Positions 4,280 through 29,146 of a stretch of 34,639 nt of DNA are shown here, one piece after another. Where the stretch lies: IMG/VR virus record IMGVR_UViG_3300028840_004348, one strand, 5' to 3'. Made by a program: the position numbers and the translations under genes. How positions within the stretch are numbered: position 1 is the first letter of the stretch; the number at the start of each line of letters is the position of its first letter. The notes beneath the pieces are model-generated. The model had not been told where the DNA came from, made no database searches, and worked only from the letters and a program-made list of their open reading frames with translations. Origin of the DNA: a virus.

Positions 4280-4720
4280 TCACTCGTCCTCTTCATCTTC
4301 CCAATGTTCGTCGAGTCCTTCGTTCCAGATCTCCAGCTGACGCTCGGGCTTCAGAAGTTGGTTTTTCGAAAGAACCGCATACTCCTGCTTGAGACGCTCC
4401 TGGCTGCCCTGCTGACGGCGCGCGAGACGATAAGGGTAGAACTCCACCGGCAGCTCCGGCAGCCCGCAGAGGCGGCGGTGCAGCTGCTGGACGCCCCAGG
4501 AGGGCTCGTACCGGTCGCAGACGTGGAGAACTTCATCAATGGGATTCGGGAACTTCATCTTCTTGAGATCTTCGAACTTCTTGGAAGTATCGAGATCGTA
4601 GAAGCAGTATACCTCCTCCTCGAAGATCTCCTTGTCGCCGATGATGCCCATCCTCGTGTCGACCGCCCGGTGCTCGCAGGTGGCGCAGCATTCGGGGAAC
4701 GTCGGTCTCGGCTTGCCCAT
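4280..4720 (-). CDS. hypothetical Cys-rich protein with acidic C-terminus
   Basis: Track ORF 4280..4987 trimmed to ATG 4720 (MGKPRPTFPECCATCEHR...), which has an AGGAGGGG SD. The longer form would overlap the 4777..5196 gene. Confidence 0.45.
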   Translation of the reverse strand: MGKPRPTFPECCATCEHRAVDTRMGIIGDKEIFEEEVYCFYDLDTSKKFEDLKKMKFPNPIDEVLHVCDRYEPSWGVQQLHRRLCGLPELPVEFYPYRLARRQQGSQERLKQEYAVLSKNQLLKPERQLEIWNEGLDEHWEDEEDE

Positions 4721-4776
4721 GACCCCTCCTACAGCTTGGTCGCGACGATATGAATGAACATCGCATCGTCTCCATT

Positions 4777-5196
4777 TCAACCGTTCTCCTTCGATTTCTC
4801 CAGTTCCTTCTCCAGCTTGTCGATGGCGGCGTCCACCTTCTTCCCGTAGGCCCGCATCCGCTCCAGGTAGGCCTCGACGGCGGCTCGCTCCTCCCGGTAC
4901 AGATCGGGCTGCTGGTACTTCAGGACGCCCGTGATGCCGCCCTGCTTCTCGGTCCTGAACCTGCCGGCACCGATCATCATCGCGCACAGGTCGAACGGGG
5001 ACGCCGACTGCTCTTCGCCCTGGAGATAGAGCGTCAGCCCGGTCTTCTCGCTCTTGTGGACCGTGAAGACCTGCTTGTGCTGGGAGATGTAGCTGTCGCA
5101 GATCTCCACGTACTCCAGCACGCTGAACTGAGGAGAGCCGGTACTCTCGTCGATGAGATAGAGCTTCTTGGGGCGGTCTTTCTCGGGTTCGGACAT
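4777..5196 (-). CDS. hypothetical protein
   Basis: Track ORF with a strong AGGAGGAAAGG SD. Confidence 0.55.
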   Translation of the reverse strand: MSEPEKDRPKKLYLIDESTGSPQFSVLEYVEICDSYISQHKQVFTVHKSEKTGLTLYLQGEEQSASPFDLCAMMIGAGRFRTEKQGGITGVLKYQQPDLYREERAAVEAYLERMRAYGKKVDAAIDKLEKELEKSKENG

Positions 5197-5205
5197 CCTT
5201 TCCTC

Positions 5206-10528: not shown

Positions 10529-10615
10529 TGGGAGATGGTGGAATCGAACCACTTGCCTCGTGGAGGAGCGGGTTTACAGCCCACCGCAGGCCCAGCCTGC
10601 CTTAGAGCACCTCCC
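10529..10615 (-). tRNA. tRNA-Tyr (anticodon GTA), class II with long variable arm
   Basis: Folded by eye. The acceptor stem is GGGAGGT/ATCTCCC and the anticodon loop is CUGUAAA. The T-loop is TTCGATT. The gene is 87 nt with discriminator A and no encoded CCA. Confidence 0.6.
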
Positions 10616-10617
10616 GT

Positions 10618-10706
10618 TGCACGGGGTGGGATTCGAACCCACACTGTCTCTTAAGCGTTGCCCTGGGGCCTGAACCCAGCGCCTCTACCAGTTGGGCTAC
10701 CCGTGC
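10618..10706 (-). tRNA. tRNA-Leu (anticodon CAG), class II
   Basis: The acceptor stem is GCACGGG/CCCGTGC and the D-stem is 3 bp with an 11-nt D-loop (CAACTGGTAGA). The anticodon loop is TTCAGGC. The long variable arm is present. The gene lies 2 nt (AC) upstream of the tRNA-Tyr 5' end. Confidence 0.55.
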
Positions 10707-10741
10707 GCTATCTAGATGCTAATTAGCGTCTAATTAGCATC

Positions 10742-10817
10742 TGGTGGACAGGGACGGAGTCGAACCGCCTACACCCGGAACTTCAATCCGGTGCTCTACC
10801 AGTTGAGCTACCTGTCC
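10742..10817 (-). tRNA. tRNA-Phe (anticodon GAA)
   Basis: A 76-nt cloverleaf with acceptor GGACAGG/CCTGTCC and D-stem GCTC/GAGC. The anticodon loop is TTGAAGT and the T-loop is TTCGACT. CCA is encoded. Coordinates were anchored on track ORF 10791. Confidence 0.65.
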
Positions 10818-10819
10818 GT

Positions 10820-10892
10820 TGCGCGTGGAGGGATTCGAACCCCAACATCCGGACCCTCAGTCCGGCGACTCTGCCAGTTGGCCTACACGCGC
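10820..10892 (-). tRNA. tRNA with anticodon GAG (Leu-decoding) but class-I length (73 nt, short variable loop)
   Basis: The acceptor stem is GCGCGTG/CACGCGC with discriminator A73, and the D-arm is Leu-type (3-bp stem, 11-nt loop CAACTGGCAGA). The anticodon stem is CCGGA/TCCGG and the loop is CTGAGGG. The T-loop is TTCGAAT. The isotype needs tRNAscan-SE confirmation. Confidence 0.45.
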
Positions 10893-10959
10893 GTTGTGTT
10901 TCACCTGCTGTCAGCAACCTCCGTTGTCGCTCACTTTCGAACGAATCTGATCAACCAAG

Positions 10960-11033
10960 TGCGACCGCCGGGAGTCGAACCCGGAACATCCTGCTTTTGA
11001 AACAGGCGACTCTGCCAGTTGGCCTACGGTCGC
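10960..11033 (-). tRNA. tRNA with anticodon CAA (Leu-decoding), class-I length (74 nt)
   Basis: The acceptor stem is GCGACCG/CGGTCGC with discriminator A, and the D-arm is identical to the GAG tRNA. The anticodon loop is TTCAAAA and the T-arm is CCGGG-TTCGACT-CCCGG. Coordinates were anchored on track ORF 10997. Confidence 0.45.
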
Positions 11034-11037
11034 TCGA

Positions 11038-11110
11038 TGCGTCCGCCAGGATTCGAACCTGGAACCCCCGGTGTTTAAAGCCGGTGCCTCTGCCGTTGAG
11101 CCACGGACGC
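11038..11110 (-). tRNA. tRNA with anticodon TAA (Leu-decoding), class-I length (73 nt)
   Basis: The acceptor stem is GCGTCCG/CGGACGC with discriminator A, and the D-arm is similar to the other two short Leu-type genes. The anticodon loop is TTTAAAC, with a C-A mismatch closing the stem. The T-arm is CCAGG-TTCGAAT-CCTGG. Confidence 0.4.
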
Positions 11111-11114
11111 TCGG

Positions 11115-11188
11115 CAGGAGAGCCAGGATTCGAACCTGGGTTTGAGGACTTGGAAACCTCCGTGCTGGACCGCTCGCACTACTCTCCC
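11115..11188 (-). tRNA. tRNA-Trp (anticodon CCA)
   Basis: The acceptor stem is GGGAGAG/CTCTCCT with discriminator G and the D-stem is GTGC/GCAC. The anticodon loop is TTCCAAG, with an imperfect anticodon stem. The T-arm is CCAGG-TTCGAAT-CCTGG. Confidence 0.5.
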
Positions 11189-11190
11189 GT

Positions 11191-11263
11191 GGTGACCGAC
11201 GAGACTTGAACTCGCAACGACCGGGGCCACATCCCGGCGCTCTACCAGTTGAGCTACGGCCAC
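11191..11263 (-). tRNA. tRNA-His (anticodon GTG), no encoded G(-1)
   Basis: The acceptor stem is GTGGCCG/CGGTCAC with discriminator C, and the anticodon loop is ATGTGGC. The T-loop is TTCAAGT. The nucleotide 5' of G1 is T, so G-1 is not templated. Confidence 0.55.
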
Positions 11264-11265
11264 AG

Positions 11266-11350
11266 CGGAGGACGCAGGGCTCGAACCTGCACCGGGATGA
11301 ACCGGACGACGCCTTAGCAGGGCGCTGCGATACCATTCTGCCAGTCCTCC
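11266..11350 (-). tRNA. tRNA-Ser (anticodon GCT), class II
   Basis: The acceptor stem is GGAGGAC/GTCCTCC with discriminator G, and the anticodon loop is CTGCTAA. The long variable arm is present. The T-arm is GCAGG-TTCGAGC-CCTGC. Confidence 0.55.
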
Positions 11351-11415
11351 ACATTAAAATTTTCCTCCATTTTCTTTAATAGTTCGGATCCTAATTAAAA
11401 CTTTCTTCAATACTG

Positions 11416-11488
11416 AGTCCCGAGCCGGAATCGAACCGGCGTCTGAGGATTTGCAGTCCCCCGCTTGAACCTGCTCAGCTACCGGGAC
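11416..11488 (-). tRNA. tRNA-Cys (anticodon GCA)
   Basis: The acceptor stem is GTCCCGG/TCGGGAC with discriminator U, which is typical for Cys. The anticodon loop is CTGCAAA and the T-arm is GCCGG-TTCGATT-CCGGC. Coordinates were anchored on track ORF 11465. Confidence 0.55.
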
Positions 11489-11491
11489 AAG

Positions 11492-11563
11492 CAGGGCCGG
11501 GCGGAGTCGAACCGCCGTACTCGGGTCCAAAGCCCGATGCTCTACACGTTGAGCTACGACCCC
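11492..11563 (-). tRNA. tRNA-Gln (anticodon TTG)
   Basis: The acceptor stem is GGGGTCG/CGGCCCT, with two G-U pairs, and the discriminator is G. The anticodon loop is CTTTGGA and the T-arm is GGCGG-TTCGACT-CCGCC. Confidence 0.5.
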
Positions 11564-11565
11564 GG

Positions 11566-11655
11566 AGGAGGGCGAGGGATTCGAACCCCCACGCCGGGAC
11601 AACGCCGACGACCGCGATTTTCGAGACCGCTCCAATACCGTTCTGGCAGCCCTCC
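11566..11655 (-). tRNA. tRNA-Ser (anticodon CGA), class II
   Basis: The acceptor stem is GGAGGGC/GCCCTCC. The anticodon arm, GCGGT-CTCGAAA-ATCGC, matches the canonical Ser(CGA) arm. The long variable arm is present. The discriminator reads U, which is atypical for Ser. Confidence 0.5.
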
Positions 11656-11700
11656 GATTGGTAAATCTTTCCATCACTTAACACTTCTTTACCGTTCGAG

Positions 11701-11787
11701 CGGAAGCGCCTGGACTCGAACCAGGACCACGGGAAACCGTGCTCTCGGCCTTCCAAGCCGGGGCCTTACCGTTGAGGCTACGCTTCC
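11701..11787 (-). tRNA. tRNA-Ser (anticodon GGA), class II
   Basis: The acceptor stem is GGAAGCG/CGCTTCC with discriminator G, and the anticodon loop is TTGGAAG. The long variable arm is present. The T-arm is CCTGG-TTCGAGT-CCAGG. Confidence 0.55.
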
Positions 11788-11800
11788 GAACTGGAAACGA

Positions 11801-11911
11801 TTAGCTTAGATAAAGCAGTGATTGATGCTGGATAAACGAGGAGAGACACCAGAGGCGGGGAGCCTTGGCGGTGGGGGCGATCATCTTTCCGATTCGCTTT
11901 CGACGTTTCAT
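11801..11911 (-). CDS. possible 36-aa basic micro-ORF inside the tRNA array (speculative)
   Basis: ATG at 11911 is preceded by GGAGAGACCG. It encodes MKRRKRIGKMIAPTAKAPRLWCLSSFIQHQSLLYLS within the 138-nt spacer between tRNA-Pro and tRNA-Ser(GGA). It is absent from the ORF track because it is too short. Confidence 0.15.
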   Translation of the reverse strand: MKRRKRIGKMIAPTAKAPRLWCLSSFIQHQSLLYLS

Positions 11912-11925
11912 CGGTCTCTCCTCGG

Positions 11926-11999
11926 TCCGGGCGAGAGGATTTGAACCTCCAACCTCTAGATCCCGAATCTAGCGTGCTACCAGATTGCACTACACCCGG
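11926..11999 (-). tRNA. tRNA-Pro (anticodon CGG)
   Basis: The acceptor stem has the C1-G72 pair characteristic of bacterial Pro, CCGGGTG/CGCCCGG, with discriminator A. The D-stem is GTGC/GCAC and the anticodon arm is CTAGA-TTCGGGA-TCTAG. The T-loop is TTCAAAT. Confidence 0.55.
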
Positions 12000-12104
12000 A
12001 TAGTCTACAGCCCCTCGCGGGGTGGTGTAGGCTTCCGGGCTGGTCGTGCTGTCTGGTTCTTCTTCATCGCACGCTTCTTCGCGCCGCTACGCGGCGAAGT
12101 CTCA

Positions 12105-12133
12105 AATATAGAAGAAGCCCTCAAAGAGATCAA
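12105..12133 (-). promoter_or_regulatory. candidate tRNA-operon promoter TTGATC-17-TATATT (the -35 overlaps the GNAT stop codon)
   Basis: Minus strand reads GCTTGATCTCTTTGAGGGCTTCTTCTATATTTGAGA. This is followed by a GC hairpin, CTTCGCCGCGTAGCGGCGCGAAG. The tRNA-Pro 5' end is about 100 nt downstream. Confidence 0.35.
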
Positions 12134-12624
12134 GCAGAAAGTTCAGAGTCGAGCTTTTCCTTCAAGCCGGTGCCGCTCTCCGTGGTCATCCCCCACTGGA
12201 TGTCCTCATAGGGAATCTCGTTCTCGCGCATCAGCTCCTGGATCAACGCGCGGCCTACTCCCTTTCCCTGCGCCTCGGGCTTGACCTCGATCATCTTGAG
12301 ATGCGTCTCGCCGCGCCAGAGAGTGTAGTCCACGTAGCCGAGCCCTTCGCCGGTCTTTGCGTCCTTGGCGACGATCCAGGCGTCCCACTGGTCGCCGAGG
12401 GCATCACCCCCGTGCTCGAAGGCGAGGGCGTCGCCCTGCTGGGCGTTCCGACCCGTTACGAAAGGAAGCAGCCGAAGAAGAAGCATCCACTGAGAGAACG
12501 CGTTCTCCTCTTCGAAGCGTCTTTTCTCCCGCTCGATGGCCCGCTCAGGTTCATCCTCTTCGATCTCGGGCACCTCGTCACCGATGCGACGAAGGGCTTC
12601 CGTGTTCAGTCCGTGGAGCCGCAT
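12130..12624 (-). CDS. GNAT-family N-acetyltransferase
   Basis: Track ORF 12130..12756 trimmed to ATG 12624, which forms a TGATG overlap with the upstream stop and has a GGGAGGAC SD. It carries the acetyl-CoA motif IEVKPEAQGKGVGRALI (the Q/R-x-x-G-x-G/A pattern). The N-terminus begins MRLHGLN. Confidence 0.6.
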   Translation of the reverse strand: MRLHGLNTEALRRIGDEVPEIEEDEPERAIEREKRRFEEENAFSQWMLLLRLLPFVTGRNAQQGDALAFEHGGDALGDQWDAWIVAKDAKTGEGLGYVDYTLWRGETHLKMIEVKPEAQGKGVGRALIQELMRENEIPYEDIQWGMTTESGTGLKEKLDSELSA

Positions 12625-13277
12625 CAGTCCTCCCAGACCGAATCGATGAGGTCGTAGATGAGATCGACCTGCTCGTCGGCGAAGTGCCAGCGGACATCGA
12701 TGTTGTCGTCGGCCCATTTCTTCGGATCGCCGTCTAGCTCCTCGGACATCGCGCACCAGTCGGCCACCATCTCCGCGATGTCGAGGTCGCCCATCCCGGT
12801 ACCGTCGATGACCTCGTCGGGAGCTGCATCCCGGTCGTCCTCGTCGACCACATCGAGCGTCTCCATCTGATGATACTCAGGGTGATGCTTGCTGTTCAGG
12901 ATGTGGTGCTGCGTGGCGACGTTGATCGCGTCCTCCATCCCCCCGGGCAGCTCGCACTCGATGCCCTCATCCTCGCACTTGTAGCGCCAGGTCAGCCAGA
13001 TGTACGGCTCCAGCTCGGGCTCTTCGAACTTGATCTGGTCGTGTTCTTCACCGCGCTCGATCAGGCCGTCGAAACCGTCCCAGGCATCCTCGATCTTCTT
13101 GCAGTACTTCTGCACGCGCTCGATGTGCTTGTTGGTCCGGTCGTAGAAGTGCTGTTCCATCTCGTCGGTGATCTGCTGAGCGACACGCCGAAGGCTGTCA
13201 AGCGCGCCCTGGACAGTCATGCCACTACGCATTCCGACCCGGATGATCGCGTTCCGGTCGAGTCCCCGAAGTCTCAT
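12624..13277 (-). CDS. hypothetical His-rich protein (possible HD-like metal-dependent hydrolase)
   Basis: Track ORF 12624..13334, which opens with TTG, trimmed to ATG 13277, which forms an ATGA overlap. Motifs seen are KHIERV, EEHDQIK (an HDxxK arrangement) and ATQHHILNSKHHPEYH. The N-terminus begins MRLRGLD. Confidence 0.4.
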   Translation of the reverse strand: MRLRGLDRNAIIRVGMRSGMTVQGALDSLRRVAQQITDEMEQHFYDRTNKHIERVQKYCKKIEDAWDGFDGLIERGEEHDQIKFEEPELEPYIWLTWRYKCEDEGIECELPGGMEDAINVATQHHILNSKHHPEYHQMETLDVVDEDDRDAAPDEVIDGTGMGDLDIAEMVADWCAMSEELDGDPKKWADDNIDVRWHFADEQVDLIYDLIDSVWED

Positions 13278-13561
13278 CCCTCTTTCACCGGAGGAAGGTC
13301 CCGCAGGACTTCCCACGCCTCGTTGAAGATCCAAGGAGTCTCATCGTATCGTCCATTCTGCTGCTTGAGTAGCACCACGTAACAGTGATCATCGATGGCG
13401 ATCTGAGCACGACCTCCGTACTCGTCTGCCAGCGTAGCTACGGGCTCGAACTCCGCGCCCTCCGGATCATCGTTGTCCCAGATAGCTCGATCATCGGTCT
13501 CCACTTGCACGTATCTCGCGATACGTCGAAGTGACTCTCGGTTGAGACCGTGGAGTCTCAC
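13274..13561 (-). CDS. hypothetical protein
   Basis: Track ORF with a GTG start that forms a GTGA overlap with the upstream stop. The N-terminus begins MRLHGLN. Confidence 0.45.
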   Translation of the reverse strand: MRLHGLNRESLRRIARYVQVETDDRAIWDNDDPEGAEFEPVATLADEYGGRAQIAIDDHCYVVLLKQQNGRYDETPWIFNEAWEVLRDLPPVKEG

Positions 13562-13989
13562 ATTCCGCCCCCGAACAGACGCTTCACGACGTCGAGCGGG
13601 AGCACCGTCTCCAACCCGAAGGTCGGGTCGTCCAGGTCGGCCTGGAAGAAGATACCCGGCTGGAACGGGATGAGACCGTGCCCCAAGATGATTGCGGCAA
13701 CCTTCTTCTGACGCTCCACGAGCGCTTCCAGCCAGCGCTCGGCTCCGTTGAAGATGATGAACTTGCCCTGCTCCTCCCAGACCTCTACGGGGGCCTGAGA
13801 ACCGGCTGAGCCTACTCCGTGAAGGATACTGTCGGCAGCTTCGTCGAGCGAATAGATGTCGACCGCCATGTCGGTCAACGGGATGTCGATGATCTTTGGA
13901 GGCGGCATCAGCTCCCCTACCAGACGTTCTCCCATCTTCTCCAAGATGAACTCGTCAACACTTCGGTATGGTCTTGGACGGTTTCTCAT
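13558..13989 (-). CDS. hypothetical protein (possible Rossmann-like fold)
   Basis: Track ORF with no SD. Its ATG lies 7 nt downstream of a TATATT hexamer within CCTGTATATT, so the mRNA is probably leaderless. Confidence 0.5.
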   Translation of the reverse strand: MRNRPRPYRSVDEFILEKMGERLVGELMPPPKIIDIPLTDMAVDIYSLDEAADSILHGVGSAGSQAPVEVWEEQGKFIIFNGAERWLEALVERQKKVAAIILGHGLIPFQPGIFFQADLDDPTFGLETVLPLDVVKRLFGGGM

Positions 13990-14022
13990 GAAGATAAATA
14001 TACAGGAAGGTGGGTCGGAAAT

Positions 14023-14304
14023 CTAAAGCTTGGGAGGTTCGGCCACCGATCGAGCCCAGGCACGGGCAGCGACATGTTGCTGTTCGACGCGCTCATGAAC
14101 GATGCGAGCGACTTCGTCGTAGGAGTCTCCGGCGTCGCCATCGACGCCTTCTGTGTAGACGACGTCCTTCTTGCGATGACCGTTCCGAATAGTCGCCCCC
14201 GGCCCGTAGGCAGCCACGACGGCGGCAGCGTCTTCCGGCAGCTTGCAGGCCGCAACGTACTCGCCTTCGGGGGTGTAGACTTTGAACTGCGGTGCTCCTG
14301 CCAT
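14023..14304 (-). CDS. hypothetical protein
   Basis: Track ORF with an AAGAGGG SD. The overlapping 13986..14255 ORF was rejected as low complexity. Confidence 0.45.
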   Translation of the reverse strand: MAGAPQFKVYTPEGEYVAACKLPEDAAAVVAAYGPGATIRNGHRKKDVVYTEGVDGDAGDSYDEVARIVHERVEQQHVAARAWARSVAEPPKL

Positions 14305-14305
14305 C

Positions 14306-14683
14306 TTAGCCCTCTTTAGAGAGTCTGTTGCATCCCCAGCACAGGTCCGTGATCGGGTCTTCCCCGTCGATCAAGTTGCCGCAGCATCGACAACGAACGG
14401 GATGGAGATATCCTCGGTACAAGCCGTCGAGCATCGAGGCAACGATGCGCCCGTCTTCCGTCAACTCCACGGGACGAAGTCCGCTGGCACAAGGCGCTCC
14501 GATGACAACCAGGCCGAGCTTCTCCAGTTGCTCGTGGCAAGGAGCGTGCCCACGCCGCTGGTAGTTCTCGAACCCCGGATGCTTTCGCACCTGCTCGATC
14601 ACCTTCAGGTGGCGGAGCGCCGTCCCGGTCGTATCAGGATAGCTACGCGAGAACAGGTCAATCGCTACGGATTGATGGTTCAT
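14306..14683 (-). CDS. hypothetical protein with C-terminal Cys cluster (CRCCGN...CWGCN)
   Basis: Track ORF 14306..14761 trimmed to ATG 14683, which forms a TGATG overlap and has an AAGGAGAACGGC SD. Confidence 0.45.
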   Translation of the reverse strand: MNHQSVAIDLFSRSYPDTTGTALRHLKVIEQVRKHPGFENYQRRGHAPCHEQLEKLGLVVIGAPCASGLRPVELTEDGRIVASMLDGLYRGYLHPVRCRCCGNLIDGEDPITDLCWGCNRLSKEG

Positions 14684-14874
14684 CAGCCGTTCTCCTTCTT
14701 CCGGATGATCTTGACGGGCGTCCACTGCGAACCGAAGTTCGAGCCGAGTCCGCTCTCCCACTGGACGCCGATCACGTCGCCGTGGGGGTAACGGCTCCAG
14801 GCACGCGGATCAACCACGATGCCCAAGACCCCCGTGTCAGTACGGATGACTTCTTCTCCTTTCTGGAACTCCAT
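14683..14874 (-). CDS. small hypothetical protein (63 aa)
   Basis: Track ORF 14683..15060 trimmed to ATG 14874, which forms a TGATG overlap with the 14874..15080 gene. The N-terminal extension in the track is Arg/Gly-rich and overlaps that gene in another frame. Confidence 0.35.
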   Translation of the reverse strand: MEFQKGEEVIRTDTGVLGIVVDPRAWSRYPHGDVIGVQWESGLGSNFGSQWTPVKIIRKKENG

Positions 14875-15080
14875 CAGTCGAGCCCCAACCGGTGCGCGAC
14901 CGCCTCGCACTCGTGACAAGTTATACCGTCCTTCAGCTGGCCGGCACGGTTGCGCTTGACACCTGCCAGCGTCGGACGACTGGGGTCCGCCGCCGATTCG
15001 CAGACGTGCTCCCAAAGGAGCGCGCTGAGAGGCTTCGCCCACTTGGGACGATTCTTCCACTTCGGAGCCTTCTTTGTCAT
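14874..15080 (-). CDS. small basic Cys/His protein
   Basis: Track ORF with an AGGAGGGCAATGAC SD. A conserved CTATATAG-type promoter motif lies upstream. Confidence 0.5.
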   Translation of the reverse strand: MTKKAPKWKNRPKWAKPLSALLWEHVCESAADPSRPTLAGVKRNRAGQLKDGITCHECEAVAHRLGLD

Positions 15081-15162
15081 GTCATTGCCCTCCTGTTGGT
15101 GTCATTCTTGATACTCTCTCTATATAGCACAGAGTCTACCCGATAAGCAAGCAAATTCTAGA

Positions 15163-15193
15163 TAAAAAAGGCCGATGCTCAAAAGCACCGGCC
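15163..15193 (-). terminator. rho-independent terminator (minus strand)
   Basis: A hairpin GGCCG(A)TGC-tcaaaa-GCA(C)CGGCC at 15170-15193 is followed on the minus strand by a U6 tract, which is the plus-strand A6 at 15164-15169. It sits immediately upstream of the promoter motif for the 14874..15080 gene. Confidence 0.5.
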
Positions 15194-15194
15194 T

Positions 15195-15500
15195 GGTTAG
15201 ATCTTCACATGTAGATCGCGGGCGCAACCCGCATGCCACCTCTAAGTATCCGGTACTTGAGTTAAGTACCGGATCGTGGCGCGGGCGTGTTGGTGCGCCA
15301 CAAAAACCCCTTTTTTCGACTCTGATCGGTGCCGGGAGCTAGCGGCTGTCAACCGTGAGTATTCCTGATTGACTCGAAGCGCCGGGGGAGGAGGCGGCGA
15401 TGTGATCTTCGAGACCAACCAAGCAAGGACACCGATCATCTTCTTTGGGTCTCCCTTTGACACCCTCTCTGTATAGCAGATAGTCCACCACGAAGTCAAG
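15195..15500 (-). other. promoter-to-terminator bounded unit of about 300 nt with strong hairpins: candidate structured sRNA, or a 65-aa ORF (15242..15439)
   Basis: It is bounded by TTGACT-18-TATACA (about 15465-15499) and the terminator at 15163-15193. It contains a perfect 11-bp-stem hairpin at 15248-15274 and a 7-bp GC hairpin at 15276-15301, followed by AAAAACCCCTTTTTT. The track ORF (MIGVLAWLVSKITSPPPPP...) has a weak SD and spans the palindromes. Confidence 0.3.
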
Positions 15501-15523
15501 CTAATCCGAAAAAAGAGAAGCTG

Positions 15524-15823
15524 CTACAGAGTCTCATCAACGACGTTGCCCAAGGTATCCAGGGCAATGTCCTTGATGAGTTCCTGAAGCTCTCGGAAAC
15601 GAGGATGAGAAGTGAACCGTTCCTCGGCTCGGGCCAAGGTAATGCCTCCTCTCGGAAGCTTGTTCCAGTCGACGTGGCTGAAGACCGAGGCAGCCTGCGC
15701 GGCAGCTTGCGGAAGCCCCCATTCAAGATCTGTCAAGACATCGTCCCAGTCGACCTCGAATCCTTCGCGCTCGATGCGCTCCTTCTCTTCCTGATAGCCG
15801 CCACCGAACGGATCACTCGACAT
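15524..15823 (-). CDS. hypothetical acidic protein
   Basis: Track ORF with a GGAGGAG SD. Confidence 0.5.
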   Translation of the reverse strand: MSSDPFGGGYQEEKERIEREGFEVDWDDVLTDLEWGLPQAAAQAASVFSHVDWNKLPRGGITLARAEERFTSHPRFRELQELIKDIALDTLGNVVDETL

Positions 15824-16367
15824 CGGGCTCCTCCATCACTTCATGGGGCTCTTCGTCAATGCGATGCATCTCGAACTCGACGCCGGCCTCGTTGCAGACT
15901 TCTTCGAAACCTTCGATCACCTTGTCAGTGTCCTCCCAGATCTCCACCCGTGTCGGCTGATGTTCCTCGATGAGTTGACGGAGCATCTCGGGCTTCCAGA
16001 CTTCTGAGCGAGAGCCCTCCGGGGCGAGCCGGATCTCATCGAAGTCGAGATCTTGTTGATCGAGCAGCTCGTTGATCCGATCTTCGAACTTCTCGAAGCG
16101 ACCAGTCACGAGCACGAACGCCGCGTCAGCTGCTTGCTCCGACTCGTGAGCGTCTCGAAGAACCTTTTGCACCCACCAGTCGGTCGTGGGCTCCTCGGGC
16201 ACCTGAGGCTCCTCCAGGCTCTTCTCGTTGGACCACCATCCTCGCTCGGGCCACCCTTTCGGTTTCTCGGGACTACGGAACAGAGTGCCGTCGAAGTCGT
16301 ACAGATGAAGCACCTTTGCTCCCGCGAGGCGGCGGAGTCCTTGCTTGGTAATGCCGAGAACGATCAT
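15813..16367 (-). CDS. HAD-superfamily phosphatase (T4 Pnkp-phosphatase-like / nucleotidase-like)
   Basis: Track ORF. It carries HAD motif I, LHLYDFDGTLF (the DxDGT signature), and a motif II-like FVLVTGR. It has no SD. Its ATG lies 7 nt after a TAGAAT hexamer, so it may be leaderless. Confidence 0.55.
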   Translation of the reverse strand: MIVLGITKQGLRRLAGAKVLHLYDFDGTLFRSPEKPKGWPERGWWSNEKSLEEPQVPEEPTTDWWVQKVLRDAHESEQAADAAFVLVTGRFEKFEDRINELLDQQDLDFDEIRLAPEGSRSEVWKPEMLRQLIEEHQPTRVEIWEDTDKVIEGFEEVCNEAGVEFEMHRIDEEPHEVMEEPDVE

Positions 16368-16407
16368 CCCGTTAATTCTACTCGATGTTCATTGGGTGCT
16401 ATAAAAA

Positions 16408-16728
16408 TCAACCGCCTTCGACCAAGGGAGGAGCTTCGTCCGCCTCGGGTTCGGCAACCGGACCAGCCACTTCCATCGCCTCGCCAGGAATGATACGGGC
16501 GACGTCTCCTTTCCCGACGACCGGTGTCACCTCGGTCGTAGCCAAAGTCGACTGAAGTTCGGTCAGGACCTTCTCCTCGACGAGATCGTCCACTGTCTTG
16601 CCGGCATCCTGAGCCGCCTGAAGATCGGCTGGGGTCAACTCGATGTTGAAGTCGACCTCCACGTCCCGTTGATCGGTCTTGACCGTCTCGCCCGACTCGT
16701 TCTTGTAGACGATGTTTACCTTGATCAT
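16408..16728 (-). CDS. hypothetical acidic protein
   Basis: Track ORF 16408..16797 trimmed to ATG 16728 (MIKVNIVYK...), which has a GAGGAGGA SD. Confidence 0.45.
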   Translation of the reverse strand: MIKVNIVYKNESGETVKTDQRDVEVDFNIELTPADLQAAQDAGKTVDDLVEEKVLTELQSTLATTEVTPVVGKGDVARIIPGEAMEVAGPVAEPEADEAPPLVEGG

Positions 16729-16729
16729 C

Positions 16730-17104
16730 TCATCCTCCTCGCGAGAGCGCGACTTTCCCCACCTTTTCCTGCATCTCCACCAAGGAAACAAGACCATCCC
16801 GCATGGTCTCGTGCATCTCCATCACCATCTGGGTGGCGTTGAGCTGAACTTGGTTGAAGACACGTTCGGCGGTCCGACAGGCCGCACAGCGAACTCCGAA
16901 GGCGTACCTGCCGATGTTCTTCTTCTTCAACTGGCTGGTCTCGAACAACAGGCACGATGCTTCGTTTTCTTCGGAGCCTCGCGATCTGTACCATTCGCAA
17001 GGTCTCAGACCTTGAACAGCTTCTCCGTCCACGATCCGGTGGCTTCTCGTGATGCAGCTTCGAGGTCCGCACTCGATAGAGAGCACCGGCATGATCTTCG
17101 TCAT
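16730..17104 (-). CDS. hypothetical Cys-rich (zinc-finger-like) protein
   Basis: Track ORF 16730..17212 trimmed to the ATG at 17104, which forms an ATGA overlap with the upstream stop. Confidence 0.4.
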   Translation of the reverse strand: MTKIMPVLSIECGPRSCITRSHRIVDGEAVQGLRPCEWYRSRGSEENEASCLLFETSQLKKKNIGRYAFGVRCAACRTAERVFNQVQLNATQMVMEMHETMRDGLVSLVEMQEKVGKVALSRGG

Positions 17105-17220
17105 CTCGACTTGTCCTTCTTCTTGCGCTCGACGTGACCGATGTATCGTTCTGCGAGAATACCCATCACGAACCCCACGAGACCCGCAATGATCCACCCC
17201 GAGATAGTCCATTCCAGCAT
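17101..17220 (-). CDS. very small single-TM protein (39 aa)
   Basis: Track ORF 17101..17376 trimmed to ATG 17220 (MLEWTISGWIIAGLVGFVMGILAERYIGH...). The N-terminal extension in the track is Arg/Ser-rich, low-complexity sequence. Confidence 0.3.
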   Translation of the reverse strand: MLEWTISGWIIAGLVGFVMGILAERYIGHVERKKKDKSR

Positions 17221-17308
17221 CGTTTCGACTCCAGTCCCAACATCCCCATACAGTATAAACGGTAGGTGTTTGGTAACTGTGAAGTGCCGATATTTTTCAT
17301 GGCGATGC

Positions 17309-17491
17309 TTACGGGAGGTACTGCTCGTAGATCTCCTCGATCTTCTGGATCTGAACTTCCGTGAACTCCCGACCATCGTCCACCAGCTCGGTCATGGACT
17401 GGACGAAGTCGATCTCCCAGCTCGTGTAATCCATCCCGTCCGTCTCGTCGATGTGCTCTTGCAGCTCGGTGACCATGTCCTCGGGGTCCAT
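17309..17491 (-). CDS. small acidic hypothetical protein
   Basis: Track ORF 17309..17536 trimmed to the internal ATG at 17491, which shares 1 nt with the upstream stop. Confidence 0.4.
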   Translation of the reverse strand: MDPEDMVTELQEHIDETDGMDYTSWEIDFVQSMTELVDDGREFTEVQIQKIEEIYEQYLP

Positions 17492-17826
17492 CAGACGTTC
17501 TCCACCGGGACTGTGATGTTGTGGTCCCACAAGCATTTTTCCAGGACATGAACACGACGCTGGAGTCGCCGAATGATCTCGAACCCAGGCTGGTGCACCA
17601 GCTCGCCGGTCGAGCCGGGGAACAGCGCGCCCTTCAAGAACTCCCTGAGAGCTGCAACGATCGCCACGTCGCTCTCGGCCTGGCGTCCGTGGATGTAGAT
17701 ATCGCCGTTGGGCTCCAGGCGCAGGATCTGGAGATCCTTGCCGTCCGGAGTGGTGCAGTGAAAACAGATGTTTCCATCCAAGTCCTCGGTATGTTCTCGA
17801 ATCGTGACACTCTCGTCGCCGCTCAT
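17491..17826 (-). CDS. hypothetical protein
   Basis: Track ORF with an AAGGAGG SD. Confidence 0.5.
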   Translation of the reverse strand: MSGDESVTIREHTEDLDGNICFHCTTPDGKDLQILRLEPNGDIYIHGRQAESDVAIVAALREFLKGALFPGSTGELVHQPGFEIIRRLQRRVHVLEKCLWDHNITVPVENV

Positions 17827-17836
17827 GCTCGCCTCC

Positions 17837-18133
17837 TTACCTCAAGTGAAAACCGAGCGACATTGCCTGCGCCCGGAGTCGTTGCATCTCGTCGACCAGC
17901 TTGATCTTCGCCTGGTCGAGCGCCGTCTCCCTGCTGAGCCAGTAATCATTGCAAGAGACGTGGTGCTCGATCCAGTTGGAGGTGTCGACATCATAGGTCC
18001 TCCCGATCACCGTCTCGTGGGTCGTGCCGGGGTAAATGACCTCTTGCGCCTCCACCCGGAAAAGCTTCGCACTCCTCTCATCGAGGTTCACGTAGAAGAC
18101 GTGGTCGCCCTTCTGTACTTTTCCCGGCTCCAT
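17837..18133 (-). CDS. hypothetical protein
   Basis: Track ORF 17837..18343 trimmed to ATG 18133 (MEPGKVQKGDHVFYVNL...). The N-terminal extension overlaps the upstream gene by 211 nt and is Gly/Arg-rich. Confidence 0.45.
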   Translation of the reverse strand: MEPGKVQKGDHVFYVNLDERSAKLFRVEAQEVIYPGTTHETVIGRTYDVDTSNWIEHHVSCNDYWLSRETALDQAKIKLVDEMQRLRAQAMSLGFHLR

Positions 18134-18375
18134 CAGTGAAGCGTTCCGTCGCCCTGGATACCGCCTGAAAACGGCACCGGAGGGCCATTCTTGGACGGCA
18201 TGTCGGTGACTGTCCAGATCAGCAGCCCCTGCTGCGTGTCGACATTGATGTTGACCGCAGCCACAACCCCGACCGTTTCGCCCTCGACCTTCTTGATATA
18301 GTCGGCGAATGCTTCGGAAGCCTGCTGAGCAGTGAACGCCCATTGCCGAAGATTCGCCCGTTTTATCTTGCTCAT
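18133..18375 (-). CDS. hypothetical protein
   Basis: Track ORF 18133..18390 trimmed to the ATG at 18375, which forms an ATGA overlap. Confidence 0.4.
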   Translation of the reverse strand: MSKIKRANLRQWAFTAQQASEAFADYIKKVEGETVGVVAAVNINVDTQQGLLIWTVTDMPSKNGPPVPFSGGIQGDGTLH

Positions 18376-18533
18376 GTTCCTTCCCCGCACTCGATGACCA
18401 CCTTCTCTCCCTCCAATCTTACTCGTTCGATCTCGTAATACTGCCGTCCGATGGCAACGACGACCTCCTGATCCAGCTGCCCCTCCAGCTCCACGAGCAG
18501 GTCACACACCCGGTCGAGGCGCTCCTTATCCAT
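18372..18533 (-). CDS. small hypothetical protein (53 aa)
   Basis: Track ORF 18372..18632 trimmed to ATG 18533, which has a GGGAGG SD 6 nt upstream. Confidence 0.4.
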   Translation of the reverse strand: MDKERLDRVCDLLVELEGQLDQEVVVAIGRQYYEIERVRLEGEKVVIECGEGT

Positions 18534-18846
18534 CGACATCCTCCCAGTCGATGTCGTTGACGCAGCCGATCTCCCACGGAGCGATATCGAGATCGACCCC
18601 GTTGAAATAGACCGTATCAACCTCGCCATCACCGTTCAGATAGAGCGTGGTATCGATCTTTCGGATACCCCAGAAGTAAGAGGCCGTGATGAGGTACTGG
18701 AAGTCGAAAGAGGATTCAGGCTGCTCCATCGCCATCTGCGCCACAGCGCCCAAGCACGCGGACTCGACCGTGTAGAAGTTCGGCAAGATGAACACACCGT
18801 CCAAAAGATCGACCATCCGTGTCGGACCTTTGTTCGTCGGGAACAT
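18526..18846 (-). CDS. hypothetical protein
   Basis: Track ORF 18526..18981 trimmed to ATG 18846. That ATG lies 6 nt after TATATT within CCTGTATATT. It has no SD and is probably leaderless. Confidence 0.45.
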   Translation of the reverse strand: MFPTNKGPTRMVDLLDGVFILPNFYTVESACLGAVAQMAMEQPESSFDFQYLITASYFWGIRKIDTTLYLNGDGEVDTVYFNGVDLDIAPWEIGCVNDIDWEDVDG

Positions 18847-18878
18847 GCTCTGAATATACAGGAAGCGGATCGAGAAGC

Positions 18879-19229
18879 CTAGTTCTTCACCAACCTGAGA
18901 TGAGGTTTGGACTCGGGCCACTCCTTCGGAGGGGAAACAGGAGGCGGAGGGAGTGGAAACGACCACCACCAGCCGTCCCAATCCTTGTTGGGCTGAACTT
19001 CACCGGTCGCAGGATCGTGAGTTAACGTCACGTAGCCGGCGATGTTGCCGAACTTGTCGGCAACGAGGTAGCGCCCGATGCGTTTGGGGCGCTCTTGGCT
19101 CCAATGCCCGTTGAGATATCCAGTCCACGAGCAGGTGACGCCGTCCTGATACTGCTCGTCATCTTTCTCACGGACAACCTTGATGGGATCTTTGGGAACT
19201 GGGGCGTTCATCTCGTTTGGATTCTTCAT
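18879..19229 (-). CDS. hypothetical Trp/Pro-rich protein
   Basis: Track ORF with no SD. Its ATG lies 8 nt after the ATATTT -10 of a TTGACA-17-ATATTT promoter, so it is probably leaderless. Confidence 0.5.
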   Translation of the reverse strand: MKNPNEMNAPVPKDPIKVVREKDDEQYQDGVTCSWTGYLNGHWSQERPKRIGRYLVADKFGNIAGYVTLTHDPATGEVQPNKDWDGWWWSFPLPPPPVSPPKEWPESKPHLRLVKN

Positions 19230-19237
19230 AACCTGAT

Positions 19238-19266
19238 AAATATCATAGAATGAGGGAGGCTGTCAA
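19238..19266 (-). promoter_or_regulatory. sigma70-like promoter TTGACA-17-ATATTT, 8 nt upstream of a leaderless ATG
   Basis: Minus strand reads TTTCTATATTGACAGCCTCCCTCATTCTATGATATTTATCAGGTTATG. Confidence 0.45.
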
Positions 19267-19285
19267 TATAGAAAGAGTACTAGAG

Positions 19286-20011
19286 CTACTTTTTCAGCCG
19301 TCTCGCGATGCGTTCCAACTGGCCGTCCCCGAGACCTTTCTTGTACCGACCTTGGCGGTCGAACTCCAGGTTTTCGTCCTCTTCCTCCTCCAGCCATCCG
19401 AGCGCCTTGAGGGCTTCCCCGATCTGCTCTTCGGAGGGATAGGAGCCGCCGGTATCGGTCCGATAATCCAGCGCATCCTGGTTGTTCTCCCACAGCCAGC
19501 CGAAGACCTTCTCCTCCCAGTCGTCCGGGGCTGTGTCGGAGACCATTGGGGCTTCCATTCGGATGTTCTCCAAGGTCTCCTCGTATTCACGCCGGCTGAC
19601 GTCTTCATCACTCAGTACGGGGTAGTCCATGAGCGCGCCGGCCAGCTCCTCCAGTTTCTGGCCAACATCCGTCAGCTCGCCGCTCGGCTCCAGGACGCGG
19701 ACCGCGTACTCGCCGTTGTCGAGACGAACGAAGTCCTCGCTGGTGGGATCGATGCTGTTCAGCGTCTCGATGACCATCTCCATGTTCGACTCGTCCCGGT
19801 GGGACATCATGTCCTTGTAGCCCTGAATGGTGGCCCACTGGTCGGCCTCGTCCCCTTCGAGACCGAGGTAATGGAAGATCGAGACCGGGCTCGTCTCCGG
19901 CGCGTAGTAGAGGCCGGCATCGCTGAGCAGTCCCCGGAACTCCATGATCTTAGGTTGAAGATCGCCTCGGTAGGTCTGCCGGTCATCGTCTTCCCAAATG
20001 TATCGAGGCAT
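19286..20011 (-). CDS. hypothetical acidic protein
   Basis: Track ORF whose start overlaps the stop of the upstream gene. Confidence 0.5.
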   Translation of the reverse strand: MPRYIWEDDDRQTYRGDLQPKIMEFRGLLSDAGLYYAPETSPVSIFHYLGLEGDEADQWATIQGYKDMMSHRDESNMEMVIETLNSIDPTSEDFVRLDNGEYAVRVLEPSGELTDVGQKLEELAGALMDYPVLSDEDVSRREYEETLENIRMEAPMVSDTAPDDWEEKVFGWLWENNQDALDYRTDTGGSYPSEEQIGEALKALGWLEEEEDENLEFDRQGRYKKGLGDGQLERIARRLKK

Positions 20012-28237: not shown

Positions 28238-28544
28238 CGCAGTCGCATTCTTCCGTTCGTGGCTTCCCGCAAGTCGCGCACCACCGGGCTTCACTATGGA
28301 CCTGTTCGATCCATGCCACGGTCTCGGCCCAGCTTTCGTTGCCCCGTTGATGGGGCCACGCCCTCTCTCCTTTCGCGAGCGCGTTCGTGATGGCAGTTAT
28401 TTCCTCGATGATTTCCTCGCGCTTCTTCTCCACATAGTAGTCGATGAGCTGTTCCGGCGTCGCGTCGTAGACGATAATGTCATCCACGATAGTAGAGAAG
28501 ATGGCGAACTTGCCGCTTGGCATCTTGACGATTCGATGACCCAT
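28224..28544 (-). CDS. hypothetical protein with C-terminal CxxC...CDC
   Basis: Track ORF 28224..28562 trimmed to ATG 28544, which forms a TGATG overlap with the HD gene stop. Confidence 0.4.
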   Translation of the reverse strand: MGHRIVKMPSGKFAIFSTIVDDIIVYDATPEQLIDYYVEKKREEIIEEITAITNALAKGERAWPHQRGNESWAETVAWIEQVHSEARWCATCGKPRTEECDCDARS

Positions 28545-29080
28545 CAGTCCGCCATCCCCCACAGGATGTCCAGGGCGCGCTTGTAACGCCGCTCGATGCT
28601 GCGCTCCTGCTCGGGCAGCCCCTCGATCCGGGAAAGGTTGTCCTGGAGATCAGCGAGCTTCACGCGCAGCGCGATGCGCGCCGCCTCCTGCATGTCTGAA
28701 TTCGGGTACACCGACTTGCTGGCTTCCTTGATCGACCGGATGTACTGGACATAGGTCGGTCGATGCACCCCGGCTTCCGCAGGCGGACGAGTGAGCAAAC
28801 GGACCGCCTCGACGACGCTGACGCTGAATCCTTCGATACGCAGGTCTTCCGGCGTGGCGTCAGTGTCTTCGCAGACATCGTGAAGCACCGCGACTTTCAT
28901 CGCATCCAGATCCGGCCCGAGAATCGGCAGTCCGACGCCTTGTCGATTCTCTTTCCAAGCTACCGCCACCATGACGCGGAGCGGATGCAGGATGTAGGGA
29001 TGCCCCTGCTTGTCGACTTGGCCTGCGTGAGTATTGGCGGCAAGCTCGATGGCTCGCTCGATTGATCCGTCCCGTCTCAT
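28544..29080 (-). CDS. HD-domain phosphohydrolase, SpoT/Mesh1-like (candidate (p)ppGpp or nucleotide pyrophosphohydrolase)
   Basis: Track ORF 28544..29146 trimmed to ATG 29080. The alternative start at 29146 has no SD and adds a hydrophobic junk N-terminus. Motifs present are AANTHAGQVDKQGHPYILHPLRV and AVLHDVCEDT, which follow the H...HD...D pattern of the RelA/SpoT hydrolase HD fold. Confidence 0.55.
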   Translation of the reverse strand: MRRDGSIERAIELAANTHAGQVDKQGHPYILHPLRVMVAVAWKENRQGVGLPILGPDLDAMKVAVLHDVCEDTDATPEDLRIEGFSVSVVEAVRLLTRPPAEAGVHRPTYVQYIRSIKEASKSVYPNSDMQEAARIALRVKLADLQDNLSRIEGLPEQERSIERRYKRALDILWGMAD

Positions 29081-29146
29081 TTTTTCATTTACCTTCTTCT
29101 TGAAGCTGTTCCATCCAACGATTAACCAGCGCACTCCAAACTTCAT

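Follow-up and report, generated by a model that had tools for sequence, protein, structure and literature searches.

A stretch of viral DNA of 34,639 nucleotides (IMG/VR record IMGVR_UViG_3300028840_004348, hereafter the window) carries three consecutive tRNA genes that combine leucine anticodons with a variable loop of only a few bases. Do these genes encode working leucine tRNAs, or something else? The window is phage-like; its genes include one for a helicase and one for a protein of the topoisomerase family. The best matches of the helicase, about 34% identical, are in Arthrobacter and Thermus phages, and most window proteins gave no family match. The same sequence is found in metagenome assemblies of ENA and JGI, in one case on a contig of 188 kb (ENA ERZ27256798, k141_1251890). 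Because an independently assembled ENA contig (L380) is 100% identical over window positions 10624-19989, which cover all three genes, they are no assembly artefact.

Three class I genes within a tRNA array

The genes lie in an array of 14 tRNA genes on the minus strand (10529..11999), called with ARAGORN and Rfam. In the direction of transcription the order is Pro(CGG), Ser(GGA), Ser(CGA), Gln, Cys, Ser(GCU), His and Trp, followed by Leu(UAA), Leu(CAA), Leu(GAG), Phe, Leu(CAG) and Tyr. Many spacers measure only 1-5 nt. The spacer between Leu(CAA) and Leu(GAG) has 66 nt (10893..10958, minus strand); ARAGORN called no tRNA in it and its RNA fold was not significant (z = -1.3). About 105 nt upstream of the first tRNA of the array, a consensus scan returned a promoter-like site, TTGATC-17-TATATT (12105..12133, minus strand), which is only a weak match and a possible promoter of the array.

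ARAGORN and the Rfam tRNA model (RF00005, gathering score 29) both call the three short Leu genes, all of class I and on the minus strand: tRNA-Leu(GAG) at 10820..10892 (73 nt, Rfam 47.3 bits), tRNA-Leu(CAA) at 10959..11033 (Rfam 10960-11033; 74 nt, 52.3 bits) and tRNA-Leu(UAA) at 11038..11110 (73 nt, 55.3 bits). The variable loop is AUGU in Leu(GAG), that is 4 nt, or 5 nt if the T stem is taken as 4 bp; it is AUGUU in Leu(CAA) and GGGUU in Leu(UAA). With 4-5 nt, none of the three has the stem-loop of more than 10 nt that forms a class II variable arm. All three have A73. Leu(GAG) has G37, and Leu(CAA) carries A36-A37-A38. The sequence-only reading had reported three genes with anticodons GAG, CAA and TAA at these positions, 73-74 nt long, with A73 and variable loops of 4-5 nt, and both programs and direct reading of the sequence bear this out. 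It had also named a different anticodon assignment as an outcome that would refute it; none emerged, since ARAGORN and the covariance model place the anticodons GAG, CAA and UAA identically, at positions 34-36 of a 7-nt loop.

The remainder of the body is of the leucine type. U8, A14, A15 and G18G19 are found in all three genes, with G18-G19 at the Leu spacing, and the final base of each variable loop is U48. The T loops are canonical (TTCGAAT/TTCGACT). The D stem has 3 bp in each gene, the fourth pair being a C-A mismatch. Leu(GAG) and Leu(CAA) have in common the D arm GGC-CAACTGGCAGA-GTC, whose 11-nt loop is one base away from the CAACTGGTAGA of the 89-nt Leu(CAG) gene in the same array, whereas Leu(UAA) has GCT-CAACGGCAGA-GGC with a loop of 10 nt. 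The likeness of the D arms to that of the long Leu gene, claimed earlier for all three, is thus clear for Leu(GAG) and Leu(CAA), and Leu(UAA) fits it less well.

Two of the genes have flaws, a U49-C65 mismatch in the T stem of Leu(GAG) and a C31-A39 mismatch in the anticodon stem of Leu(UAA). These are what an advocate of non-functional relics, decoys or regulatory RNAs, transcribed with the array and not used in translation, would point to, together with the near absence of UUA from the window genes and the lack of an encoded CCA in any of the three genes. We regard that explanation as very unlikely. The genes score 18-26 bits over the Rfam threshold and keep all the invariant tertiary positions, and the lack of an encoded CCA is common to nearly all tRNAs of the array. 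Further evidence against it comes from gene order, from the family of related tRNAs and from codon use, as described below.

A leucine body and its family

The bodies were classified without reference to their anticodons, with profile HMMs of 21 isotype/length classes of viral tRNAs in which the anticodon was masked; the syntenic IMG/VR locus L062, described below, was excluded from training. Thirteen of the 14 window tRNAs, likewise masked, fell with the isotype of their own anticodon, the exception being Gln. The short-Leu model scored 48.9 for Leu(GAG) against 24.1 for the next isotype (a margin of 24.8 bits), 47.2 against 30.7 for Leu(CAA) (16.5 bits) and 35.6 against 30.9 for Leu(UAA) (4.7 bits, the smallest of the three). 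The earlier argument that a shared Leu-type D arm together with exclusively Leu anticodons is no coincidence is therefore upheld, as all three masked genes score best as short-Leu. Leu(UAA) is the least secure case, given its 4.7-bit margin, its C31-A39 mismatch and the share of UUA among Leu codons, which is only 0.6%. The sequence-only reading had also proposed to inspect covariance-model scores; the masked HMMs, with short-Leu as the top class for all three genes, stand in for an isotype-specific check of that kind.

To extend the comparison beyond the window, we derived the pattern TAGSCCAAYTGGCAGAGKCG from the shared D arm and scanned it against IMG/VR and one genome per bacterial species. 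The IMG/VR scan yielded at least 119 loci, and that of the bacterial genomes at least 120. Among the matches listed, all 114 viral tRNAs bearing the pattern have a Leu anticodon and a length of 74-78 nt by ARAGORN (UAG 58, CAA 35, UAA 8, CAG 7, GAG 5, AAG 1), and the 111 bacterial ones are, without exception, short and equipped with a Leu anticodon. All 225 tRNAs listed are therefore short and carry one of six Leu anticodons. That a single body should be found only with six anticodons of two codon boxes is as expected if the body specifies leucine.

The features of this family set it apart from other class I tRNAs. Among 207 distinct viral short Leu tRNAs, the share with A73 is 92%, compared with 53% for the rest of class I, and the last variable base is U in 90%, where other class I tRNAs have U in 31% and C in 49%. 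The variable loop has 5 nt in 80% of these 207 sequences. The D arm has 17 nt and the layout AAYUGGYAGA, as in long viral Leu tRNAs, while in other class I tRNAs it mostly has 15-16 nt. We observe in passing that a variable loop ending in U fits the A15-U48 pair of the E. coli tRNALeu identity set (PMC6614811).

An alignment of 107 sequences, including the three window genes, has only single-base gaps, which fall in two of the window genes. U8, A14, A15, G19 and A73 are invariant in it. The family cloverleaf is paired at 98.4%, and 20 of its 20 pairs vary on both sides, with a covariation score of 0.956 versus 0.21 for shuffled sequences and at most 0.18 for slid partners. A rule for position 37, G37 for CUN and A37 for UUR readers, was not clean across the family and was discarded as evidence. 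A family maintained with full covariation and with Leu anticodons only argues against relics or decoys.

The same data bear on the idea that the tRNAs are mischarged, that is, that another host synthetase or a phage enzyme loads them with an amino acid other than leucine and so recodes CUY, UUG or UUA. As LeuRS is blind to the anticodon, a change in the body could in principle switch identity with the anticodon unchanged, and a synthetase gene might lie in the rest of the phage genome of about 188 kb. However, the bodies bear the positions expected for Leu, namely A73, A14, the combination of A15 and U48, and a D loop of Leu type; they classify as Leu when masked, and across the 225 genes among the matches listed this body is found with six anticodons that are all Leu. 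We consider mischarging extremely improbable. An alanine identity in particular was rejected, because G3-U70 is absent from the short Leu genes.

The neighbouring Leu(CAG) gene (10618..10706, minus strand; 89 nt, Rfam 53.7 bits, also called by ARAGORN), which reads CUG, had been described as a canonical class II gene. A gene of that anticodon does lie at these coordinates, but it is not canonical. The D arm, GCC-CAACTGGTAGA-GGC, is one of the short family and was seen in none of about 80 long Leu tRNAs sampled. Its variable region of 20 nt, GGCAACGCUUAAGAGACAGU, forms no clean stem in RNAfold, unlike the Ser and Tyr arms of the same array. The anticodon-masked gene scores higher with the short-Leu model (45.7) than with the long-Leu model (33.0), and it aligns to the 77-nt Leu(CAG) of L062, a short gene, with a 15-nt insertion. 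Judged from its sequence, it looks like a short-family tRNA bearing an insertion. It is a more unusual gene than the three short ones.

The L062 locus allows a comparison at the level of the array. The window's order Trp-Leu(UAA)-Leu(CAA)-Leu(GAG)-Phe-Leu(CAG)-Tyr recurs there, corresponding genes are 69-79% identical (79% for Leu(UAA)), and the Leu genes differ from those of the window with compensatory changes in the stems. Conserved order and compensatory change are, again, not what relics or decoys would lead one to expect. In the 14.5 kb of L062 that were compared, no flanking protein is shared with the window. We found no close relative with a variant array in INPHARED, IMG/VR, metagenome contigs or the relatives of flanking genes: INPHARED held no phage matching the window array beyond single tRNAs, the exact 23-nt D-arm string of the window was absent from IMG/VR and occurred only in two unrelated metagenome contigs, the relatives of the flanking DUF5662 gene had no comparable tRNA array, and exact-protein look-ups returned only the same phage, at 99.98-100% identity, which confirms the sequence but offers no orthologue variation. 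The comparative evidence is therefore at the level of the family plus one distant syntenic array.

Taken together, these results make it probable that all three tRNAs function as Leu isoacceptors of class I (type I) and belong to a large family, in which a leucine-type body is combined with a variable loop of 4-5 nt. Among the options offered by the sequence-only reading, that of genuine minimalist Leu isoacceptors is the one supported; we found nothing in support of decoy or regulatory tRNAs or of a non-canonical aminoacylation route.

Distribution and the missing arm

The sequence-only reading had treated the three genes as anomalous on the premise that tRNA-Leu of bacteria and phages is always class II. 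This premise is wrong, as short-loop Leu tRNAs with this D arm are common in phage clusters, bacterial arrays and actinobacterial chromosomes. A first similarity search matched a short tRNA-Leu adjoining tRNA-Phe in KVP40-like Vibrio phages. Among cultured phages, short tRNA-Leu genes are annotated in KVP40 (tRNA-Leu-3, 78 nt), in the Cronobacter phages CR8 (75 nt) and LPCS28 (78 nt), and also in Streptomyces, Gordonia, Rhodococcus, Pseudomonas, Enterobacter, Pantoea and Citrobacter phages. Blastn found no short-Leu relatives in 5,426 E. coli genomes.

Frequencies were estimated in an unselected IMG/VR sample, drawn with a D-arm pattern unrelated to Leu. In this small sample of 50 Leu genes, the ratio of short to long genes was 14:36 for Leu, 1:33 for Ser and 3:12 for Tyr, so that short-armed genes make up about a quarter of the Leu tRNA genes in these viral contigs. 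Among the matches listed, viral loci seeded on the motif gave 193:21 for Leu, 1:59 for Ser and 1:34 for Tyr, and bacterial loci with at least five tRNAs gave 105:3, 0:48 and 0:18, respectively; these locus counts are biased towards short Leu, because the scans started from the D-arm motif. Within the sampled mobile tRNA arrays, which the motif selected, nearly all Leu tRNAs are short-armed. The matches listed also include 45 bacterial loci with a single tRNA, mostly in Actinomycetota and with the anticodon CAA or UAA. In four that we examined, the neighbours were genes for ribose-5-phosphate isomerase, DNA polymerase I, enolase with Ppx, and a dicarboxylate symporter; such housekeeping neighbours indicate that these are chromosomal genes and not prophage cargo. 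Short-armed Leu tRNAs are core genes in many Actinomycetota.

Why should the arm be short? One answer, compatible with working isoacceptors and addressed to precisely this question, is evasion of host defence: the array would replace host Leu tRNAs destroyed during infection, and the short arm would let the phage tRNAs escape a host nuclease that recognises the long arm of class II tRNAs, on the model of human SLFN11, which prefers type II tRNAs. The strong enrichment of short Leu genes in both kinds of array locus is in line with this, as are reports that phage tRNAs evade anticodon nucleases and that bacterial Schlafen nucleases cleave tRNAs in defence (PMC13056530, PMC13462974, PMC10264068). 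The window itself encodes a protein with a HAD_SAK_1 domain, a domain described from RNA-repair proteins. Yet our literature search found no bacterial nuclease specific for class II tRNAs, and for the prokaryotic Schlafens characterised the cleavage sites lie in the anticodon arm or T loop of a broad range of tRNAs. Moreover, Ser and Tyr tRNAs keep their long arms in the same arrays, which shows that the phages are not avoiding long arms generally, and the single-copy chromosomal versions of Actinomycetota show that the architecture persists without a context of phage defence. We therefore hold evasion to be an unlikely account of the short arm. We also considered whether the abundance of Leu, Ser and Tyr genes in the array betrays pressure specific to class II tRNAs, and rejected this; the array simply covers codons starting with U or C, plus Ser AGY.

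A broader scenario, to which we give little credence, is that phages and tRNA arrays disseminate short-armed Leu tRNA as a mobile chassis, made invisible by the loss of its arm to some host factor that recognises class II tRNAs. The Actinomycetota copies would then be domesticated, and Leu(CAG) of the window would have grown its unstructured 20-nt region anew by the 15-nt insertion. A defence nuclease and a stress-induced tRNA-depletion pathway are examples of what such a host factor could be.

With regard to working isoacceptors, that the Ser and Tyr tRNAs of these arrays have kept their long arms agrees with the idea that LeuRS alone can dispense with the arm. We propose that loss of the arm is possible in Leu tRNAs, and not in those for Ser or Tyr, because the arm holds no identity information for LeuRS.

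Decoding, charging and comparison with known systems

By their anticodons, the three tRNAs are expected to decode CUC and CUU (GAG), UUG (CAA), and UUA plus UUG (UAA). Leu codon use in 23 window genes is 48.6% for CUC and CUU together, 36.5% for CUG, 11.9% for UUG, 2.4% for CUA and 0.6% for UUA. Since this usage is heavy in CUC, CUU, CUG and UUG, the array supplies codons that the phage uses. About 60% of the phage Leu codons in these genes are matched by the GAG and CAA tRNAs, a further point against relics or decoys.

The route from gene to charged tRNA can be sketched as follows. With spacers that are often only 1-5 nt and a weak promoter-like site upstream, the 14 genes may be transcribed as one precursor, which host RNase P and 3' processing enzymes would cut. 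The host CCA-adding enzyme would then complete the 3' ends, because no CCA is encoded in the genes. Host LeuRS would charge the products with leucine, reading the discriminator, the acceptor end and the tertiary core formed by the D and T loops, and would need neither the anticodon nor a long arm. The charged tRNAs would finally decode CUC/CUU, UUG and UUA/UUG as expected.

The charging step is proposed on the basis of published work on bacterial LeuRS. The identity elements of bacterial LeuRS are A73, A14, A15-U48 and the G18/G19-U55/C56 elbow, and not the anticodon (PMC6614811). The type I tRNALeu(CAA) of Streptomyces coelicolor is a substrate of the LeuRS of that organism, which charges it with about half the efficiency of type II, or slightly less (PMC6614811). 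In Aquifex, removal of the variable arm from tRNALeu mainly lowers affinity, and deletion of U48 abolishes charging (PMC2377443). E. coli LeuRS does not charge the S. coelicolor type I tRNALeu(CAA) (PMC6614811), which means that acceptance of class I Leu tRNAs is not general among bacterial LeuRS enzymes. Residues in the leucine-specific domain of LeuRS are reported as critical by Fan et al. (PMC6614811). Acceptance of the short Leu tRNAs probably depends, then, on the LeuRS of the host.

The kind of tRNA to which the three window genes belong is already known, and they are an ordinary example of it and not an oddity. One type I tRNALeu from a bacterium has been studied biochemically (PMC6614811), and GenBank has for a long time contained phage examples annotated as tRNA-Leu. 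The study of the bacterial tRNA calls the coexistence of type I and type II tRNALeu rare and does not mention phages (PMC6614811), and in the literature that we searched for short-armed Leu tRNAs in phages we found no description of the phage family or of its breadth. By themselves the three genes are of little importance, and they can be annotated as tRNA-Leu with confidence. The general short-Leu pattern, which is not a property of this window, may deserve a census. It constitutes a natural data set on which LeuRS variants accept armless Leu tRNAs and on why Leu, and not Ser or Tyr, loses the arm.

Among the systems with which the window genes can be compared, canonical bacterial class II tRNALeu has in common with them A73, a 17-nt D arm with a 3-bp stem and the AAYUGGYAGA loop, and U48 (identity elements taken from PMC6614811 and PMC2377443). 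It differs in having a variable stem-loop of 11-20 nt, which the window genes do not have. Further differences are position 9, usually A and not G, and position 13, C and not a purine.

Animal mitochondrial tRNALeu(UUR/CUN) is likewise class I with A73. Mitochondrial tRNALeu has reduced D and T loops and is served by a dedicated mitochondrial LeuRS, whereas the window genes have the canonical G18G19 and canonical T loops. A human mitochondrial tRNA was not charged by S. coelicolor LeuRS (ScoLeuRS; PMC6614811).

Leucine bodies deprived of the arm have also been engineered. The E. coli minimalist RNAs of Larkin and colleagues (2002), cited in PMC2377443, are reportedly substrates of this type, with LeuRS charging a Leu body that has no long arm. 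The delta-V-arm tRNALeu of Aquifex (PMC2377443) shows the same, LeuRS charging an armless Leu body. These arm-deleted substrates are laboratory constructs of reduced affinity, whereas the window genes are natural and evolutionarily maintained.

The same architecture, with nearly the same D arm (GCCCAAYTGGCAGAGGC), is found in the Vibrio phages KVP40, V07 and 1.081.O, the Cronobacter phages CR8 and LPCS28, and in Streptomyces, Gordonia and Rhodococcus phages. The short tRNA-Leu of these cultured phages has a 5-nt variable loop, for example ATGAT, and A73, and lies in tRNA clusters, often beside tRNA-Phe. In contrast to the window genes, most have a UAG anticodon and an encoded CCA, and their hosts are known; identity to the window genes is at most about 70-80%.

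A characterised counterpart is the type I tRNALeu(CAA) of S. coelicolor (Fan et al., Nucleic Acids Res 2019, PMC6614811). It resembles the window tRNAs in its short variable loop, U8-A14 and G18/G19 elbow, and it coexists with long-arm Leu tRNAs in one cell. A73 is no identity element for ScoLeuRS (PMC6614811), and the window genes all have it. S. coelicolor has a single chromosomal gene with one anticodon, CAA, whereas the phage array of the window holds three isoacceptors, one of which reads CUY. Within the family, leucylation by an ordinary bacterial LeuRS has been demonstrated for the S. coelicolor tRNA alone, and it is predicted for the window genes.

The long leucine tRNA of the array and the first acceptor pair

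The longest leucine tRNA gene of the array, tRNA-Leu(CAG) (10618-10706, minus strand), had been described in the sequence-only reading as canonical. This label does not hold, since the gene carries a D arm of the short-family type and a variable region of 20 nt without a clean stem, and is preferred by the short-Leu profile (45.7) over the long-Leu profile (33.0), both built from viral tRNAs with the anticodon masked. Because the leucine gene in the matching position of L062, an IMG/VR locus with syntenic tRNA order, is only 77 nt long (12804-12880), the Leu(CAG) gene of the window looks, as judged from sequence, like a short-family tRNA carrying a 15-nt insertion.

All three short Leu genes of the window have G1-C72 as the first acceptor pair. 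This pair is replaced by G1-U72 in 36 of the 107 short Leu tRNAs in alignment A2, which includes the window genes (columns 1 and 73), a frequent wobble at a site adjoining the discriminator.

Codon coverage, spacers and neighbouring proteins

The array (10529-11999, minus strand) contains 14 tRNAs, all of which read codons whose first base is U or C (Phe, Leu, Ser UCN, Tyr, Cys, Trp, Pro, His and Gln) with the sole exception of Ser(GCU), which reads AGY. This coverage suggests a larger tRNA set of which the array makes up one half, the remainder lying elsewhere in the ~188-kb genome.

Minus-strand spacers of the array were folded and compared with shuffled sequences. The one between tRNA-Phe and tRNA-Leu(CAG) contains a perfect 12-bp hairpin (10715-10741; GAUGCUAAUUAG-ACG-CUAAUUAGCAUC), AT-rich in a genome of 59% GC, with a folding energy of -14.5 kcal/mol (z = -5.3) that none of 200 shuffles equalled; on this predicted structure, it could be a site for processing, termination or protein binding. 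The spacer of 136 nt that separates tRNA-Pro from tRNA-Ser(GGA) (11788-11923) also folds more stably than its shuffles (z = -3.3) and, on inspection by eye, presents GGAGAG followed by an ATG that starts an ORF of ~36 codons (MKRRKRIGKMIAP...); it may be a small gene or, alternatively, a structured RNA within the array. The 64 nt separating tRNA-Cys from tRNA-Ser(GCU) (11351-11414) are strongly AT-rich and have no stable fold relative to shuffles (z = 0.1); this spacer is possibly an internal promoter or processing region.

Four proteins with domain matches are encoded near the array, all on the minus strand (15813-16367, 28544-29146, 12624-13334 and 12130-12756). One has a HAD_SAK_1 domain (E = 2.4e-17), the HAD family found in RNA-repair proteins of the 'Swiss Army Knife' type, one shows a weak HD-domain match, under Pfam's own cut-off, one contains DUF5662, and another is a GNAT acetyltransferase. 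From these domain assignments, a connection with tRNA repair or modification is possible.

Related tRNA sequences in viral and bacterial loci

The IMG/VR locus L032 has three Rfam tRNA matches in a row (4649-5198), each 116-123 nt long with an insertion of ~45 nt, one of them with a Leu-type D arm; they may be viral tRNA genes with introns or otherwise interrupted. At the D-arm motif of six further IMG/VR loci (L034, L039, L084, L097, L098 and L116), a Leu-type acceptor and the 5' half of the D arm are followed by unrelated sequence, and these sites gave no tRNA call. They may represent truncated tRNA-Leu copies, for example integration-site remnants.

In single-tRNA bacterial loci (L303, L319, L278, L272 and others), a short tRNA-Leu(CAA/UAA) gene that has the D arm of the short Leu family is present in single copy, amid housekeeping genes. 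Because such genes occur in Bifidobacterium breve, Actinomyces, Corynebacterium and Mycolicibacterium, the type I tRNALeu of Streptomyces, the short-variable-loop tRNALeu(CAA) of S. coelicolor (PMC6614811), seems, on gene sequence, to be widespread across Actinomycetota.
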